NCBI GenBank assembly: GCA_016931055.1
Contig: JAFGFL010000062.1
Coordinates: 17,451-81,450, forward strand
DNA from: Candidatus Omnitrophota bacterium
GTDB taxonomy: Bacteria; Omnitrophota; Gorgyraeia; Zapsychrales; Zapsychraceae
DNA: 64,000 nt
Direction of reading: 5' to 3'
The notes under the pieces were generated by a model that saw only the letters and a list, made by a program, of their open reading frames with translations, was not told where the DNA came from and did not search any database. The translations under genes were made by a program, and so were the position numbers. Of the stretch, positions 2,944 through 59,874 are shown in pieces; the first letter of the stretch is position 1; every line of letters begins with the position of its first letter.

Positions 2944-3636
2944 TCAATCGTTCTTTTCTTTTTCTTCCAAAGCCCTGACCCGCCTGATCAGGTCTTTCAG
3001 GTGCTGCATGATAGGATCGGAAACATGGACATGGTCCATCATCAGGTCAATCCTCTTCCCGTCCTGCTTGGTAATGTGCCCGGGCACGCCGACGACCGTT
3101 GAATTCGGAGGAACGTTCTCCAAGACAACGGCATTCGCCCCGATATAGCTGTTATCGCCAACCGTGATGTTCCCCAACACCTTTGCCCCGGCCCCAATAA
3201 CGACATTGTTCCCGATTGTCGGATGGCGCTTTCCCGTTTCTTTTCCGGTCCCGCCTAACGTCACCCCTTGAAAAAGAGTCACATTGTCCCCGACGATCGC
3301 CGTCTCGCCGATCACGACACCCATCCCGTGATCGATAAAAAACCCTTTCCCGATTAAAGCGCCGGGATGGATTTCAATACCTGTTATAAGCCGCGCCAAC
3401 TGGGAAACAAACCTCGGGAAGAACGGGACCTTTATTTTCCATAAGGCATGGGCTATCTTATAGGCAATAAAAGCATGGAGCCCCGAATAAAGCAGGATGA
3501 TCTGCAGATACCCTTTCGCCGCAGGATCCTTTTCCTGTGTTTCTTTGATCGATTGCTGAAAAAAGATTGCAACCAAAAGGACATAGGCAACAATGATCAG
3601 CAATAAAACAGATACGGTTATGCTCAATCCCATCAT
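2944..3636 (-). CDS. cysE: serine O-acetyltransferase with a hydrophobic N-terminal extension
   Basis: DPAAKGY...GIEIHPGA...FIDHGMGVVIGETA and hexapeptide repeats match short-form CysE. The first ~25 aa (MMGLSITVSVLLLIIVAYVLLVAIFF) look like a TM helix. Confidence 0.85.
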   Translation of the reverse strand: MMGLSITVSVLLLIIVAYVLLVAIFFQQSIKETQEKDPAAKGYLQIILLYSGLHAFIAYKIAHALWKIKVPFFPRFVSQLARLITGIEIHPGALIGKGFFIDHGMGVVIGETAIVGDNVTLFQGVTLGGTGKETGKRHPTIGNNVVIGAGAKVLGNITVGDNSYIGANAVVLENVPPNSTVVGVPGHITKQDGKRIDLMMDHVHVSDPIMQHLKDLIRRVRALEEKEKND

Positions 3637-3640
3637 TCAC

Positions 3641-3717
3641 TCCCGTCATTTTTCCTCATTTCCATTAGGAGGAAATGATGAGACTCGTACCCATCCCTTA
3701 ATCGGATGGTACGGCCT
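3641..3717 (-). promoter_or_regulatory. conserved two-hairpin leader element, copy a (fills the ispF-cysE spacer)
   Basis: The sense sequence AGGCCGTACC...GGGTACGAGTCTCATCATTTCC...GGAAATGAGGAAAAATGACGGGA aligns end to end with the copies at 37488-37567 and 59039-59117. Its terminal GGGAG lies 3 nt before the cysE ATG. Confidence 0.6.
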
Positions 3718-4202
3718 CATCCATTAAGTGGTTCCAACAGCACGGTCGCGAAAGCGGCTATTCCGCGCTTCCGGCCGATAGCGCCCAACTGCTCGTGCGT
3801 GGTCGCTTTAATATTAACCACGCCTTCCTTGACGTTTAATTTACCCGCTATGTTCAAGCGCATTTGCGGCTTATAGGGGCTTAACTTCGGCTCTTCGGCC
3901 AGAATGATGCAATCGACGTTCCCAACCCGATAGCCTTTTGCGCCTGCCAACGCGCACACTTGTTCCAAAAGAACCAGGCTTGATATGTCCTTATATTTTT
4001 TGTCCGTATCCGGAAAGTGCTCGCCAATATCCCCTTCCCCCAAGGCGCCAAGGATAGCGTCACAGACCGCATGCGCGAGCGCGTCCGCATCGGAATGACC
4101 GTCCAACCCGCGTTCGTAAGGGATCTCAACGCCGCCTAAAACGAGTTTGCGGCCCTTCACCAAGCGATGGATATCATATCCTATGCCAATACGCTGTTTC
4201 AT
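3717..4202 (-). CDS. ispF: 2-C-methyl-D-erythritol 2,4-cyclodiphosphate synthase
   Basis: 161 aa with IGYDIHRL and HSDADALAHA motifs. Confidence 0.95.
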   Translation of the reverse strand: MKQRIGIGYDIHRLVKGRKLVLGGVEIPYERGLDGHSDADALAHAVCDAILGALGEGDIGEHFPDTDKKYKDISSLVLLEQVCALAGAKGYRVGNVDCIILAEEPKLSPYKPQMRLNIAGKLNVKEGVVNIKATTHEQLGAIGRKRGIAAFATVLLEPLNG

Positions 4203-5908: not shown

Positions 5909-7273
5909 CTATGTCAGAGCCTCTAAGGCTTCTTTGACTGTTTCCACGCCGATAATGTTGATGTTTTTCTTTTTTAAATCCTTATTCATCTTCAAATTGT
6001 TCTTGGGTACGATGCACGTCTTAAACCCGAGCTTGTCCGCCTCGTTAACACGCACCGCAAGCTGGCTGATGCTGCGGACCTCTGACGAAAGCCCGACTTC
6101 GCCCAGAATAACCGTATCGAACGCAACCGGTTTGTCCAAAAGAGCCGAGGCCAAAGCGATTCCCACCCCTAAATCAGCAGCCGGATCCATCACCTTAACG
6201 CCTCCGGCCACGTTCAAGAAAATATCCTTATCTTGCAGGTTGAGGCCCAATCTTTTCTCAAGGACGGCAACCAGCAAAGACAGCCGGTTTGCGTCAAACC
6301 CCTGGGCCTTTTGCCGGACCATGCTGAAATTCGAACGGCTGACCAATCCCTGGATCTCGACCAAAAACGGCCGGCTGCCTTCCATGATCGGCACAACGAC
6401 AGAGCCTGAGGCGTCACGCGGCCGCTCCGACAGGAAAAGTTCAGACGGATTGGCAACTTCGATTAATCCGGCGGGAGTCATTTCAAAGACCCCGATTTCG
6501 TTGGTGGAACCGAAACGGTTCTTGGTCGTCCTCAGGATACGGTACGTCGAATAGCGTTCGCCTTCGAAATAAAGCACCGTGTCGACAATATGCTCCAAGA
6601 CCCTTGGGCCCGCCAGCATGCCGTCCTTCGTGACATGCCCGATAATAAATAAGGAAATCCCTTTGGACTTTGCCAAATGCGTCAATATCGCCGCGCATTC
6701 CCGGACCTGGCTGACGCTCCCGGGTGATGAAGATATCTCGGGGCTATAGATGACCTGGACCGAATCGACAACAACCACATCGGGTCTCATCTTGTTGATA
6801 TACCCGATCATATCTTCCAGGTTCACTTGATTAACGATATAAAGCGACTTGTTTTCTTTCGCGCTCAAGCGTTGGGCTCTCAGCCTTGTCTGCTGAACGG
6901 ATTCCTCCCCGCTGACATAGAGCACTTTCAGTCTTCTCTCGCTTAAAGCGCAGCCGACCTGCAAAGCTAATGTCGATTTACCGATCCCGGGGTCGCCCCC
7001 GATCAATGTGACCGCTCCGGGAATAATACCCCCGCCCATAACCGTGTCAAATTCCCTGAGGCCCGTGACATGCCTTTTCTCCTCGCCGGTCATGACATCC
7101 GTCAGAAGAACCGGTTCATCTTTTAAAGTGACGCGGTTTCGTTTATCGGTCAACGGGGCATCGATCTCTTCGACCAACGAATTCCAGCTGTCGCACCCGG
7201 GGCATTTTCCGGCCCATCGGGGAGATTGTATCCCGCAATTCTGGCAGATAAATACGGTCCTGGTTTTGGTCAT
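5909..7273 (-). CDS. radA: DNA repair protein RadA
   Basis: Zinc finger CQNCG...CPGC, Walker A GDPGIGKST, a KNRFG motif and a Lon-like C-terminus. Confidence 0.95.
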   Translation of the reverse strand: MTKTRTVFICQNCGIQSPRWAGKCPGCDSWNSLVEEIDAPLTDKRNRVTLKDEPVLLTDVMTGEEKRHVTGLREFDTVMGGGIIPGAVTLIGGDPGIGKSTLALQVGCALSERRLKVLYVSGEESVQQTRLRAQRLSAKENKSLYIVNQVNLEDMIGYINKMRPDVVVVDSVQVIYSPEISSSPGSVSQVRECAAILTHLAKSKGISLFIIGHVTKDGMLAGPRVLEHIVDTVLYFEGERYSTYRILRTTKNRFGSTNEIGVFEMTPAGLIEVANPSELFLSERPRDASGSVVVPIMEGSRPFLVEIQGLVSRSNFSMVRQKAQGFDANRLSLLVAVLEKRLGLNLQDKDIFLNVAGGVKVMDPAADLGVGIALASALLDKPVAFDTVILGEVGLSSEVRSISQLAVRVNEADKLGFKTCIVPKNNLKMNKDLKKKNINIIGVETVKEALEALT

Positions 7274-29224: not shown

Positions 29225-29560
29225 TCAGACACGGGCCGTTTCCGCCGCCACCTTTGATTTAAGTCTGATAAAATCAAATCGAAGGATCTTCTCATTTATC
29301 CTAAAAAGGGGTTTTAGCTGACCGATAATTTCCCCTTGACCTTCAAAATTGATAATATAATATGTCCCTTCGCTGCATTTCTTGATCGGAAAAGTCAGTT
29401 TATGCTTTTCAAGCCATACTTGGCTATTGATGATTTTCCCTCCGCGCTTATTGATGGCCTCCGTGATCTCTTTGCGGACGGTTTCTTTTGCCTCATTCGT
29501 CAATTTCGCATCAACAATCGCAACTAACTCATATTTCCTTGTTAATTCATTCTTCTCCAT
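29225..29560 (-). CDS. rpsF: 30S ribosomal protein S6
   Basis: YELVAIVD... pattern, in rpsF-ssb-rpsR order. Confidence 0.9.
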   Translation of the reverse strand: MEKNELTRKYELVAIVDAKLTNEAKETVRKEITEAINKRGGKIINSQVWLEKHKLTFPIKKCSEGTYYIINFEGQGEIIGQLKPLFRINEKILRFDFIRLKSKVAAETARV

Positions 29561-29622
29561 GTTTTTCTCTCCTTAATACAACTTAGCGCATTCAACCTAA
29601 AAGAACAAACACATCTCGACGG

Positions 29623-37407: not shown

Positions 37408-37436
37408 TTGTCAAAGGTATCGTTGAAGGCTATAAT
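37408..37436 (+). promoter_or_regulatory. near-consensus sigma70 promoter for the ppiD-like gene
   Basis: The plus strand reads TTGTCA-17 nt-TATAAT. This places leader copy b inside the 5' UTR. Confidence 0.65.
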
Positions 37437-37487: not shown

Positions 37488-37567
37488 AGGCCGCACCCAT
37501 TCCTTTATCCGGTGGGGTGCGAGCCTCGTCATTTTACCTTTATGGTAAATGGCAAAAATGACGGGAG
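37488..37567 (+). promoter_or_regulatory. conserved two-hairpin leader element, copy b (5' UTR of the ppiD-like gene)
   Basis: AGGCCGCACCC...GGGGTGCGAGCCTCGTCATTTTACC...GGTAAATGGCAAAAATGACGGGAG. The GGGAG lies 5 nt before ATG 37573. Confidence 0.65.
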
Positions 37568-39207: not shown

Positions 39208-39690
39208 GACTTCCTTATAATCAGGAAGAAGGGCATGTTCCTCGGAAAGGACCCTTCCCTCCCTGCTGAGAAGGAAAAATGTCGGGAAACCGATGATGTT
39301 ATATTTCTCCGAGACAATTCCGTCCTTGTCCAAAAAAGAATCATAGGAAATGTTTTCGGAGTCAACATAAGCCTTCACCTTCCTGGAGTCCTCACCGACA
39401 TCAACCAGAATGACCTTGATCCCTTGTCCTTCAATATCTGCCCGTTGGCCATTCAGCGCCGCCAGTTGGCTCCGGCAGTGGGGACACCATGTTGTCCAAA
39501 AGAACAGAATGGCCGGCTGGCCGGCCCGGACAGAGTTCATGGACTCACTGCGGCCGCTCAATGTCAACAAAGTAAAATCCGGGGCAAGTTGACCTAAAAG
39601 CGGATTGGGGCCTCTTAAAAACGGGCCGCATGACCTAAGAAGGATAAAGACCACAAAAACCGCGAGAAGCGCTTTGATGATTAATTTCAT
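39187..39690 (-). CDS. TlpA/ResA-family thiol-disulfide oxidoreductase
   Basis: Signal/anchor sequence and a thioredoxin motif FWTTWCPHC. Confidence 0.85.
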   Translation of the reverse strand: MKLIIKALLAVFVVFILLRSCGPFLRGPNPLLGQLAPDFTLLTLSGRSESMNSVRAGQPAILFFWTTWCPHCRSQLAALNGQRADIEGQGIKVILVDVGEDSRKVKAYVDSENISYDSFLDKDGIVSEKYNIIGFPTFFLLSREGRVLSEEHALLPDYKEVLLEPGP

Positions 39691-50963: not shown

Positions 50964-51389
50964 TTAACTTAGGTGTTGTTCATTCCTGATTTCCGAGGGA
51001 GACTTGCGCTGCGGAATCAGGCCGGCCATCAGCTTGATGGCTATGAGAATTCGATCAACCGAGCACGGCTTGACAAGATAGTGCTCAGCTTCCAAGGAAA
51101 GTCCTTTTTTTACATCATCCATTTCCCCCCTCGCGGAAACAATGATCACCGGCTGCCATTTCTCTTCCGGCGGATGCTCCCGCAATTCCTGCAAAACCTC
51201 AAAGCCGTTCTTTTTGGGCATGTTCAGGTCAAGGACAATGATATCCGGCGATTCATTCCGGATCTTCTGCCACGCTTCCTCACCGTCAGCCGCCGAAATA
51301 ACGGCATAGCCCCGTTCGGCGATCTTCTTGGTCATGATCTTTAGGATCTCGGGCTCATCATCAGCAACAAGGATTTTTAAATTCTGCAT
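50964..51389 (-). CDS. stand-alone response regulator receiver protein
   Basis: KILVADDEP...DIIVLDLNMP...K receiver motifs. The start is at MQNLKIL, with GGAG 6 nt upstream. Confidence 0.8.
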   Translation of the reverse strand: MQNLKILVADDEPEILKIMTKKIAERGYAVISAADGEEAWQKIRNESPDIIVLDLNMPKKNGFEVLQELREHPPEEKWQPVIIVSARGEMDDVKKGLSLEAEHYLVKPCSVDRILIAIKLMAGLIPQRKSPSEIRNEQHLS

Positions 51390-51425
51390 TATTTCTCCAT
51401 TAAATGACGATCGTAACGTGTCCGT

Positions 51426-51470
51426 CCTCAACTTAACTTGCTGGCGGATCCGCCTTCAAGTTAAGTTGAG
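51426..51470. repeat. 15-bp perfect palindromic hairpin
   Basis: CCTCAACTTAACTTG-[CTGGCGGATCCGCCTT]-CAAGTTAAGTTGAGG. The loop itself contains GGCGGATCCGCC. Confidence 0.75.
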
Positions 51471-51492
51471 GGCGAGACCTCGCCAAATTTAT

Positions 51493-51972
51493 CTAAATTT
51501 GGCGGGCCGAAGAATAATCTTTAAGGTCATATTTAATCTCGGTAGACGGCATCGCATGTTTATCGATCGTAACCCCGGCCTTGGCAAAGAATCCCGTGGC
51601 CAACGTGTCGTGATATTCCGAAAAGACAACGACCCGCTTGATCCCCGCTGTAATGAGCGCCTTCGCGCAGGTCGTGCACGGCATGTTCGTGACATAAGCC
51701 GTCGCCCCATCGATCGCATGCCCGCGCTTGGCCGCCTGGACCAGCGCGTTCATCTCGGCGTGAACCGTGCGGACGCAATGATTGTCGACCACCAAGCATT
51801 CATCATCTTCGCAATGGACATCGCCGGGGATCGACCCGTTATAACCGGTCGAGACAACATTCTTATCTTTGACCAGGACGCAGCCGCAGTGCATACGCGG
51901 ACACGTCGCGCGCTCAGAGGCCAGCATGGCCAGCTTCAGGAAATATTCATCCCAATCGGGTCTTTTCTGCAT
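51493..51972 (-). CDS. deoxycytidylate (dCMP) deaminase
   Basis: Zinc motifs HAEMNA and PCTTCAKAL. Confidence 0.9.
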   Translation of the reverse strand: MQKRPDWDEYFLKLAMLASERATCPRMHCGCVLVKDKNVVSTGYNGSIPGDVHCEDDECLVVDNHCVRTVHAEMNALVQAAKRGHAIDGATAYVTNMPCTTCAKALITAGIKRVVVFSEYHDTLATGFFAKAGVTIDKHAMPSTEIKYDLKDYSSARQI

Positions 51973-58056: not shown

Positions 58057-58747
58057 AGCAAAAAATGGTTGTCGCGTGCGCCGCGTTGAAGGACACGGTG
58101 TCGCAGGCCATAGGGATCGACAATTCCATATCAAGTGTCTTCCGGATAACGTCCCTGATCCCCTTTTGTTCCGAGCCTACCACGAGCCCCAAAGGATAAG
58201 GCAGCCGGGCCTCGTTTAAAGGCTGCCCTCCCTGGACAACGGCCCCGGCGATCCAAAAGCTCTTCTCCTTCGCCTTTTTAATCGCATTGCCCAGATTGGG
58301 GACCCTCGAGATAGGGACATAATTCTCGCCTCCGGACGCCACGCGCAAAACCGATTCGGTCACGCTGACCGAGTCATGCGTCGGCAGGACCAGGGAAAAC
58401 TTCCCCAAACAGGCGAGGCTGCGGATAATGGCGCCGAGGTTCTGGGGATCGGTCAGCCCGTCTAAAAAGACCGGGCAGCGGTTTTTCCTGAGCGCCGCCT
58501 CCAGCAAATCATCGTACGGCACATAGGCGGCATCCTCGACATCCGCCAGAATCCCTTGCGTGTTCTTATCCCGGCCGATCTTCATCATTTTCGATGCCGG
58601 GATCTGATAGACCGGGATGCCCCATTGCCGCGCCTTTTTATGGATGAACAAGGTGCCCTGAAAGCCGTGCTGGATATAGATCTTCGTAATGCTCGTCGGA
58701 TTTGACCGCAAGCGCTCAATGACCGGATTTCTCCCAGAGAGTTTCAT
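58007..58747 (-). CDS. rlmB: 23S rRNA 2'-O-methyltransferase RlmB
   Basis: SpoU motifs NLGAIIRS, LVVGSEQKGI and SFNAAHATTIFCYE, plus an N-terminal substrate-binding domain. Confidence 0.85.
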   Translation of the reverse strand: MKLSGRNPVIERLRSNPTSITKIYIQHGFQGTLFIHKKARQWGIPVYQIPASKMMKIGRDKNTQGILADVEDAAYVPYDDLLEAALRKNRCPVFLDGLTDPQNLGAIIRSLACLGKFSLVLPTHDSVSVTESVLRVASGGENYVPISRVPNLGNAIKKAKEKSFWIAGAVVQGGQPLNEARLPYPLGLVVGSEQKGIRDVIRKTLDMELSIPMACDTVSFNAAHATTIFCYEITRQKKKYQKESKQ

Positions 58748-58770
58748 TATGGCCGTGCCGTTTAAAGGGA

Positions 58771-59031
58771 TTATTCCTGCGATATGATCTTGTTTGTCCG
58801 TTCCTGCACTTCTCTGTCATATTTCGCGTCCAGATGGTCTCTTTGTTCGATATATTCAGCGTACGTGATCTCTTTATGCAGATATTGACGCTCCAGGCCA
58901 TCCCGGTTTTCTTTGTAGTTGGCAAAATGCGGGTCCTGAATCAATGTCTCAGGATTCTCCAGATAATTCTGCCCGTAAGTACACCCGAACAATACCAAGG
59001 CGCAGGACAATAAAAGACTTTTTTTGATCAT
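58771..59031 (-). CDS. small lipoprotein (hypothetical)
   Basis: 86 aa with signal plus lipobox LFGC. Confidence 0.6.
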   Translation of the reverse strand: MIKKSLLLSCALVLFGCTYGQNYLENPETLIQDPHFANYKENRDGLERQYLHKEITYAEYIEQRDHLDAKYDREVQERTNKIISQE

Positions 59032-59038
59032 CGCTTTT

Positions 59039-59117
59039 TCCCGTCATTTTTCCGCATTTCCTTTAGAAGGAAAGGACGAGGCTCGCACCCTATCACATAC
59101 TAGGCAGGGTACGGCCT
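59039..59117 (-). promoter_or_regulatory. conserved two-hairpin leader element, copy c
   Basis: Sense sequence AGGCCGTACCCT...AGGGTGCGAGCCTCGTCCTTTCC...GGAAATGCGGAAAAATGACGGGA, ending 7 nt before ATG 59031. Confidence 0.6.
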
Positions 59118-59139
59118 TTTTTAATCGCGTTCTTGAAAT

Positions 59140-59874
59140 CTATTTTTTGATCCCCCATCCCAAATAAAATAAGGGGCGTAAAATACTCCACCATCCGGAG
59201 AGCGGCCGCATCTTGGTGTAACCGACTTTCCTCGACGGGTAGATCTTCGTTACAGGGGCTTCCGTCACTTTAAATCCCAGCGTAATGGCTTTATACAACA
59301 AATATGGCTCCATCTCATAGTGGTCAAGCCAAGGCTGGTCAATATTGATCTCCCGATGGCCAAAGATCGAAAGCCTGAACGCCCGAAAGCCGTTTGTGCT
59401 GTCGGTAACTTTCTTCTTTGTCAGAAACGACATGAGCCGGGGATGTATCCTTGTCGCGATTTTCCTGTAAAACGGCATGTCTCCGCCGGCGCCGTCATGC
59501 CCCATATAACGGGACCCCTGGACAAAATCATAACCTTCTTTAAGAATCGGGCCGATCAGCCGCGGGATCTCATCCGGGTTATCTTTATTGTTCCCCGCCA
59601 TGATCACAAGGATTTCGTATCCCTGTCGGCGCGCGTATTGGACCGCCGTCCGGATGGCCGCGCCAACGCCCCGCCTCTTTTCATGCCTGATCGTTTTCAC
59701 TCCCTGAGCCGCGAAACCGTTGATGATCTGGGTCGTGCCGTCATTGGAGGCATCATCCACGATAAGATAGTCAGCCTCAGACCGTACACGGCATTTCAAA
59801 AAACGTTCAATAACCTTCCTGAGCTTCTCATTTTCATTAAACGCAACGGGACAAACCAGAACCTTATTCATCAA
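59140..59874 (-). CDS. family 2 glycosyltransferase
   Basis: N-terminal GT-A fold with [11 protein letters not shown] and a DXD-like motif. Confidence 0.8.

Follow-up and report, generated by a model that had tools for sequence, protein, structure and literature searches.

A short hairpin element of Candidatus Omnitrophota, probably mobile, in the Shine-Dalgarno core of unrelated genes

Introduction

Between a glycosyltransferase gene and a small lipoprotein gene of a Candidatus Omnitrophota genome, a two-hairpin element occupies the minus strand at positions 59114..59040 of the stretch of DNA analysed here (64,000 nt, hereafter the window). It has the same sense as the 86-aa lipoprotein gene and ends at its ribosome-binding site. 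An earlier note on this DNA described it as copy c of a leader, by implication a regulatory one; the window contains two further copies. The locus thus raises the question of what such an element is, and how it came to lie at the most sensitive position of the gene.

Results

Structure and boundaries of copy c

The features of the locus are the following.

59140..59874, minus strand: GT2 glycosyltransferase gene, upstream (Pfam annotation from syntenic loci); its stop codon is 23 nt before GGCCG
59115..59122, minus strand: native A-run and GG (AAAAAAGG), left half of the presumed original ribosome-binding site, displaced upstream by the putative insertion
59040..59114, minus strand: copy c, putatively inserted 75-nt element (CCG...GACGGG), delimited by the alignment of the filled site with the empty sites L139/L140; 70 bits with covariance models
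59084..59113, minus strand: hairpin 1 (P1), CGUACCCU (59113-59106) / AGGGUGCG (59091-59084), one U-G wobble, 14-nt loop
59078..59082, minus strand: central GCCUC, a segment resembling an anti-Shine-Dalgarno (anti-SD), read from the sequence, with alternative folds computed
59052..59078, minus strand: hairpin 2 (P2), CGUCCUUUCC (59078-59069) / GGAAAUGCGG (59061-59052), C-U and U-C mismatches
59040..59051, minus strand: right end, A5 linker (59051-59047) and UGACGGG (59046-59040)
59029..59039, minus strand: native spacer AAAAAGCG and ATG of the lipoprotein gene, same as in the empty sites
58771..59031, minus strand: 86-aa lipoprotein gene of a conserved family (ORF call, homologues)

Read on the minus strand from 59122 to 59029, the sequence is AAAAAA GG CCGUACCCUGCCUAGUAUGUGAUAGGGUGCG A GCC U CGUCCUUUCC UUCUAAA GGAAAUGCGG AAAAA UGACGGG AAAAAGCG AUG, with A6 at 59122-59117 and GG at 59116-59115. 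As GG flanks both junctions, the limits of the element could equally be set at 59116..59042. Pairing of AGGC with GCCU, past a bulged A at 59083, lengthens hairpin 1, and in this extension (helix P1a) the native A-GG is paired with the GCCU of the element. The 3' strand of hairpin 2 is a near-copy (decoy) of the tail proximal to the Shine-Dalgarno (SD) sequence. GGG at 59042-59040 takes the place of the displaced GG of the native SD, and 8 nt separate UGACGGG from the ATG at 59031. In the predicted folds, three partners are available to GCCUC, namely the left junction (AGGC), the decoy and the G-run of the rebuilt SD, and an alternative helix (P3) can arise between AAAUGACG and CGUC(C)UUU. The two-hairpin layout, the A6, the U-G wobble in hairpin 1 and the C-U mismatch in hairpin 2 were all present in the sequence as they had been described, and so was an alternative helix reaching the SD (CGUC.../...GACG).

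The lipoprotein gene, said to follow directly in the same sense (ATG at 59031), is real and conserved. It has 40 homologues with 46-100% identity and an invariant lipobox G-C, and the gene order greA, oxidoreductase, acetyltransferase, GT2, lipoprotein, SpoU methylase, HD protein and M48 peptidase is conserved.

On the plus strand the extended hairpin 1 is followed by TTTTTT and resembles an intrinsic terminator of antisense or convergent transcription. Such a function has next to no probability: no credible plus-strand gene ends at copy c, the scan called no terminator on the plus strand, most other copies lack such a run, and the A/T run predates the element, AAAAAAAGG being also found in the empty orthologous sites L139/L140 and L141. 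Moreover, the plus strand folds less well (-24.9 kcal/mol, z -2.3, against -30.1 kcal/mol, z -3.1, for the sense strand) because the wobble pair turns into a C-A mismatch there. The terminator appearance is therefore coincidental, as the earlier note had supposed with the same mismatch in mind.

A family of related copies

Covariance models built from relatives gave copy c a score of 70.0-70.3 bits (E about 1e-13 to 1e-20). As described in the earlier note, copy c and the two further copies of the window represent one and the same element. A pattern scan of 185,579 species genomes returned 46 stretches, of which 44 were real copies in 18 assemblies, and a relaxed pattern applied to metagenome contigs returned 92, about 75 of them real. 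About 90 distinct copies (89 analysed) are present in public assemblies, almost all of Candidatus Omnitrophota. The copies from species genomes were labelled Candidatus Omnitrophota/Omnitrophica or "uncultured Planctomycetales", with one exception from Nitrospirota. This exception (L034 5155-5244, SBBT01000126.1, Candidatus Troglogloeales) is the only copy labelled outside Omnitrophota/Planctomycetales, and its hairpin 2 is G+C-rich and wholly different in sequence; mis-binning or horizontal spread could account for it.

The consensus of the family is AA-GGC/CG-(P1, variable)-CG/A/GCC-U/CGUCAUUUCC-loop-GGAAAUGNNG/AAAAA/UGACGGG/AG(G) ... 4-6 nt ... AUG, in which GGCCG, CGAGCCUCGUC and AAAAUGACGGG are strongly conserved phylum-wide. 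No two copies are identical. Copies of the same genome at unrelated loci are 90-96% identical, the "variable" loops included, with flanks at background similarity, which suggests that copying was recent. The copy number is modest, with 1-8 per species genome (strict pattern) and three in about 80 kb of the present genome. No further copy was detected in the about 15 kb of the same contig beyond the window, and the covariance models found only weak candidates for more copies within the window (51444-51510 and 39228-39290). When second copies were sought within the public loci of 8-14 kb, one short variant was obtained (L106 13703-13771, plus strand). It scores 24-34 bits, carries GAGCCGCGCC in place of GAGCCUCGUC and has a single second hairpin (CGCC...GGCG) with no decoy; it still lies at AAAGG^...GGCGGG^AG (^ marks a junction here and below), 8 nt before an ATG. 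The decoy is missing in some copies (L005, L037, L055, L106b).

The window contains a second, different palindromic intergenic element (51385-51525, minus strand), which precedes a response-regulator gene and is very stable (-58.5 kcal/mol, z -7.7). At its start is GGCC/CGCCAAAUUU-AGAU-AAAUUUGGCG/A/GGUC, which is the hairpin-with-bulged-A layout of the left end of copy c, and continues with a 15-bp palindrome and then CGUCAUUUAAUGGAG before the ATG; the covariance models give it a weak score of 17 bits. Elsewhere, long inverted repeats of the form CCCGCCAATTTC...GAAATTGGCGGG or CCCTGTCAATTTT...AAAATTGACGGG (L038 about 6380-6480; L046 and L108 about 6090-6190, and identical loci) enclose a terminator-like hairpin beside tRNA genes, and their CCGCCAAATTT motif is common with one P1 subfamily.

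Genes next to the element

The copies are placed at a fixed position and before unrelated genes. A start codon follows at a distance of 4-13 nt (mode 8) in 85 of the 89 copies, and 38 of the 89 start at most 16 nt from the stop codon of an upstream co-directional ORF. The proteins encoded downstream have no common function: 148 Pfam families were counted among 83 proteins, with at most four proteins in any one family, and examples include solute-binding proteins, a V-ATPase proteolipid, RecA, L31, Hsp20, TatA, response regulators, DnaK, thioredoxin and S6. One copy (L005) is located directly before a tRNA-Ser gene, and a few copies have no nearby ORF. Two related copies (L089 263-354, L123 5274-5368) have GGGAGTCCAAC(C/G)TCAACGCGTAATTAC on their 3' side and lack a start codon in the next 20 nt; these copies are insertions at an SD-like site other than a ribosome-binding site.

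Filled and empty orthologous sites

The comparison of orthologous loci carries most of the argument. Copies a and b are defined as follows.

3642..3714, minus strand: copy a, between the stop codon of ispF and cysE, putative insertion point TGAGG^AG (covariance model; empty orthologous sites L144-L147)
37491..37565, plus strand: copy b, 5' UTR of a PpiD/SurA-like gene, putative insertion point TAAGG^AG (covariance model; empty orthologous site L148)

For copy c, the spacer between the GT2 and lipoprotein genes measures 108 nt in the window and 23-69 nt in five orthologous loci (L139-L143), all of them free of the element. The empty site of L139/L140 reads GATTAAAAAAAGG^AAAAAGCGATG and the filled site of the window GATTAAAAAAGG(75 nt)AAAAAGCGATG; read over a longer distance, L139 has GATTAAAAAAAGG^AAAAAGCGATGATC and the window GATTAAAAAAGG(CCGTACCC...AAAAATGACGGG)AAAAAGCGATGATC. 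As the element is missing from five orthologous spacers, copy c is best explained as a lineage-specific insertion into a native ribosome-binding site. For copy a, the gap between ispF and cysE is 83 nt in the window and only 2-13 nt in four orthologous loci (75-85% identity), and the flanks match TGAGG^AGTGAATG. Copy b lies downstream of a near-consensus, sigma-70-like promoter (TTGTCA-17-TATAAT, 37408-37436, plus strand). Two orthologous loci, L148 and L150, share this promoter, and L148 also shares the 5' UTR, which reads ...AATGG^AGTAATTATG there and is free of the element. When the flanks of the three copies are rejoined, GATGAGG-AGTGAATG, TATAAGG-AGTTAAAATG and AAAAAAGG-AAAAAGCG are obtained for copies a, b and c, respectively. 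Both filled window alleles were obtained again when the reads of this sample (SRR13394437) were assembled independently, so that assembly artefacts do not explain them.

Eight further filled/empty pairs show the same junction, which gives at least 11 pairs in all; one pair (L119 and L114) shares 97% protein identity and another (L035 and L123) 92%. The tRNA-Ser case is informative about the target. The L005 copy (3632-3724, minus strand), one of those with no decoy hairpin, is inserted two bases inside the tRNA gene (GG^AGAGGTGGCC; GG^AGAGGTGGCCGAG), the corresponding site of L037 is empty, and the terminal GG of the element restores the 5' end of the tRNA. This insertion indicates that a sequence, and not a function, is targeted. 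The rpsF site is filled in L002 (MAG CSMAG_1994) and empty in the window (29552-29581, minus strand). The ribosome-binding site of rpsF (ribosomal protein S6) in the window, TTGTATTAAGG^AGAGAAAAACATG, is thus a vacant target, and the L002 copy is located at exactly that position.

In L150, a PpiD orthologue (68% identity) carries a different insert of about 170 nt in the same 5' UTR (about 1030-1195). It contains a GTCCGCCC...GGGCGGAC hairpin and CGTCCCGCC...TGACGGGG, and is missed by the covariance models; it may be a decayed or distinct relative of the element.

Dispersed copies, unrelated flanks, presence and absence at orthologous sites and a constant junction are the general marks of mobile repeats, and all were found here. 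The sequences thus point to a repeat that was gained at many independent sites; that the copies were inserted, and not precisely deleted elsewhere, we infer by parsimony rather than from a dated tree. Copy c is therefore probably one insertion of a non-autonomous mobile element of about 75 nt, which homes to SD sequences and occurs almost only in Candidatus Omnitrophota.

Junction and target

In the filled/empty pairs, the junction is constant (...RGG^AG...), lies inside the SD core and is found in a single orientation. The consensus of the flanks is AA-GG on the left (77 and 72 of 89 copies) and AG(G) on the right, i.e. the canonical SD AAGGAGG split in two, and the empty sites correspond to the filled flanks rejoined. 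In the filled sites, the target's own GG lies to the left of the element, and the terminal GGG of the element (CCG...GACGGG) replaces it on the right. The SD is thereby rebuilt at its native spacing from the start codon, as GGGAG(G) in general and as GGGAA in copy c, whose odd GGGAAAAAG is explained by its native site AAGGAAAAAG. The element ends have in common only CCGYC...GACGG, which makes 5 nt, or 9 nt in the CCGTCATTT subfamily; a MITE derived from a DDE transposon would be expected to have terminal inverted repeats of about 10 bp or more and a target-site duplication of fixed length. The sequence around the junctions, with GG on both sides, allows three models: the target is not duplicated, 2 nt of it are duplicated, or the two junctions share a recombination core of 2 nt.

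In the window, AAGG occurs 827 times and AAGGAG 26 times, five of the latter in the context of a ribosome-binding site. A target preference for 6 nt, combined with purifying selection against hits in coding sequences, would suffice to account for the location of the surviving copies and for their bias to genes with a strong SD.

This bias bears on another explanation, in which the element would benefit the host as a translation-initiation cassette (an insulator or enhancer with a strong, protected SD) spread by recombination to highly expressed genes. Many of the downstream genes are typically abundant in their products (S6, L31, DnaK, Hsp20, RecA, thioredoxin, TatA, V-ATPase proteolipid, solute-binding proteins), the rebuilt SD gains a G, and the copies close to an upstream co-directional stop codon could be seen as fillers of operon spacers. 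The same bias, however, follows from a preference for the canonical AAGGAG carried by strong ribosome-binding sites, and the insertions at the tRNA gene and away from ORFs have no translational logic. Presence and absence at 92-97% protein identity also point to rapid turnover and not to a fixed adaptive feature, which leaves the cassette improbable.

Folding, covariation and the two conformers

The folds of the element were supported by covariation. Across the 89 distinct copies, P1 and hairpin 2 covary strongly, with 86% of cells paired and 12 pairs changed on both sides; both-side changes amount to 132 cells against 41 in shuffles, and none of the 500 shuffles reached the observed value. 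The pair counts of P1 include CG:47 and UA:35, and both-side changes affect nine of the ten pairs of helix 2 across the family. Many G-U pairs are specific to the sense strand. Helix P3 (CGUCAUU/AAUGACG), the alternative pairing, is 96% paired and nearly invariant; one of its pairs shows a compensatory change from U-A to C-G in five copies, and in two of these the decoy is unchanged, so that the change speaks for P3 itself.

The conformers with hairpin 2 and with P3 differ by no more than about 1-2.5 kcal/mol in each of the three window copies, and the predicted minimum-energy folds switch between the two across the family. According to the earlier note, the odd C of copy c affects both conformers equally. 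This was not the case: replacing it with the consensus A gains 4.0 kcal/mol for hairpin 2 and only 1.5 kcal/mol for the SD-proximal helix P3. With P1a formed, the SD has a mean probability of being unpaired of 0.56 in the family as a whole and of 0.72 in copy c.

Such features could be those of a cis-regulatory translational switch, whether riboswitch, RNA thermometer or operator of a global RNA-binding factor, in which the anti-SD CCUC would alternate between the decoy (ON) and the true SD (OFF) and a shared signal would control a post-transcriptional regulon. The element always includes or abuts the SD, nearly always at 4-13 nt from a start codon; its conformers are close in energy and alternate in the family; compensatory changes are seen in both helices; and the single-stranded tail AAAAUGACGGGAG is highly conserved. 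Nevertheless, a switch as the primary explanation is unlikely. Rfam 15 gave no match for the region 58700-59400 at E up to 10, and only a tRNA elsewhere when the whole window was searched at gathering thresholds. The downstream genes have no common function, the element is missing from the orthologous leaders of close relatives at at least 11 loci, one copy precedes a tRNA gene and a few precede no ORF, some copies lack the decoy, and the SD is mostly unpaired in either conformer when P1a is formed. Covariation can also arise from selection on transposition-competent hairpins. The structural description of a leader given in the earlier note was accurate, but the absence of an Rfam family, the incoherent set of genes and the empty orthologous sites argue against a conserved, riboswitch-like leader. 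A switch and mobility do not exclude each other, since a mobile element could carry a switch.

Other candidates rejected

Several other identities were considered and rejected. A metabolite riboswitch or gene-specific leader does not agree with the incoherent downstream genes and the empty orthologous sites, nor does an RNA thermometer (ROSE, fourU) agree with an SD that is mostly unpaired and with downstream genes that range from ribosomal proteins to transporters. A leader peptide or uORF that begins with the conserved AUG of AAAAAUGACG would lie at a variable distance from the main start (most often 15-17 nt), so that neither frame nor stop is conserved. CsrA-type GGA sites are missing from the decoy of copy b and from that of the CSMAG_1994 copies. 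For a DNA operator, the arms of the CGTCATTT/AAATGACG inverted repeat are spaced by a variable distance of about 20-38 nt and the stems covary, and for a self-cleaving ribozyme no Rfam match and no known core were found. An integron attC site would require R''/R' (RYYYAAC ... GTTRRRY), whereas the element ends are CCG... and ...GACGGG with no GTT core. REP/REPIN-RAYT elements were discarded as the GTAG head is absent, 85 of the 89 copies are directly 5' of start codons, and only 1-8 strict copies occur per genome.

Discussion

A possible course of events

If copy c is a mobile element, the following picture can be proposed. From its location, the element is very likely co-transcribed with the downstream gene, and the RNA is predicted to fold as hairpins 1 and 2. 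The central GCCUC, complementary to the target and to the SD, could pair with the left junction, with the decoy that copies the tail, or with the SD once it is rebuilt (P3). The decoy hairpin would occupy the anti-SD and the rebuilt SD would stay open. With the anti-SD kept occupied in this way, the host gene would remain translatable, and the insertion would be close to neutral or mildly modulating. The effect on the lipoprotein gene would probably be small. According to the predicted folds, the transcript of the element could toggle its internal anti-SD between the decoy and the rebuilt SD, and a real two-state translational control would be compatible with mobility. Selection on the RNA, i.e. 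a host-level function beyond the needs of a mobile element, could stand behind the conserved blocks, the compensated but mutually exclusive helices and the near-equal energies of the conformers.

By analogy with the IS200/IS605 type (PATE, REP/RAYT), the element may move by a single-strand, hairpin-guided peel-and-paste reaction. AAGG would then act as the transposon-adjacent motif (TAM), CGGG as the transposon-encoded end motif (TEM) and GCCUC as the internal guide, and excision would produce a circle with the junction ..ATGACGGG-CCGYC... A tblastn search of about 1 Mb of sequence with IS200 TnpA and RAYT queries gave no match, a weak negative result, and no pair of left and right ends split around a gene, as in an autonomous element, was present in the searched loci.

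A more specific scheme can be imagined, in which the transposon would choose its target by base pairing. The GCCUC guide would read the AAGG/GAGG of a ribosome-binding site on single-stranded DNA, the terminal GGG would repair the site, and the decoy hairpin would silence the guide in the mRNA so that essential genes with high expression tolerate the insertion. This scheme is speculative and has a rather low probability. If true, it would represent a ready-made anti-SD/decoy switch that can be plugged into any gene, in other words a mobile builder of regulons.

Comparison with known systems

For the comparison with PATEs, the properties of the IS200/IS605 family were taken from PMC10055086. 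Like these, the present element is small and gene-less, with a stem-loop near each end (P1 and P2/P3, supported by covariation). Its insertion is oriented and takes place directly 3' of a fixed short sequence, AAGG, which would correspond to a TAM; a similar sequence at the end of the element itself, CGGG, would correspond to a TEM. No clear target duplication is seen and the empty sites are scarless, within the ambiguity of the GG at the junctions, and the internal GCCUC resembles a DNA guide in its complementarity to the motifs of both junctions. In contrast to PATEs, where the left motif is about 15-20 nt away from the hairpin, here it abuts the hairpin; moreover, a single central segment would guide both ends, and the SD core is no reported TAM.

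REPs and REPINs are likewise short, palindromic and non-autonomous repeats with vertical persistence, diverged copies per genome and sequence subfamilies. REPs have a GTAG-type head, are mostly located downstream of genes or between convergent ones, reach hundreds of copies and occur in either orientation. The Omnitrophota element, however, has 1-8 or more copies, always in sense, upstream of a start codon and inside the ribosome-binding site. The term Shine-Dalgarno was absent from the REPIN/RAYT literature retrieved.

To our knowledge, none of the ERIC, Correia/NEMIS, BOX, RUP and MIRU repeats has been described as targeting and rebuilding an SD. As may be the case for the present element, these intergenic repeats are part of operon transcripts, adopt hairpin folds and can influence how adjacent genes are expressed; mycobacterial MIRUs also share the location in operon spacers and the orientation of the gene. 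ERIC and Correia repeats differ by long terminal inverted repeats and TA-type duplications, and MIRUs are tandem minisatellites (this comparison is based in part on PMC3049150 and the review PMC10969869). Ribosome-binding sites are not mentioned in that 2024 review of prokaryotic MITEs (PMC10969869).

With riboregulators that sequester the SD (translational riboswitches, ROSE, fourU), the element shares an anti-SD/SD helix, a competing hairpin and nearly isoenergetic folds. Unlike them, it has no conserved gene association, no junction resembling a ligand pocket and no Rfam match; it is gained or lost between close relatives, and a decoy of the SD-proximal strand is foreign to those families. 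By analogy, the element would work most like a PATE or a REP-type repeat, from which it is set apart by the SD-core target, the sense-only 5' position, the self-repair and the decoy/anti-SD pair. No description of an RNA motif of Omnitrophota or of an SD-targeting repeat was found in the 2024 MITE review, the REPIN/RAYT literature and the main Omnitrophota genomics paper.

Significance

The usual place of a small mobile repeat is downstream of a gene or at a neutral site. Landing in the SD core of housekeeping genes (ribosomal proteins, DnaK, RecA, ATPase proteolipid, tRNA) and restoring the signal would therefore be an unusual, harmless niche for a parasite at the most sensitive position of a gene. 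The finding also calls for caution in the discovery of RNA motifs. With its strong covariation, its fixed position at the SD and its two alternative folds, the element could be taken for a riboswitch as long as its filled sites are not set against the empty orthologous ones. If its internal anti-SD serves as a DNA guide, the element would constitute a natural and compact system for SD-directed insertion. Should the decoy/anti-SD toggle operate in the RNA, it would be a transposable module of translational control in an uncultivated phylum.
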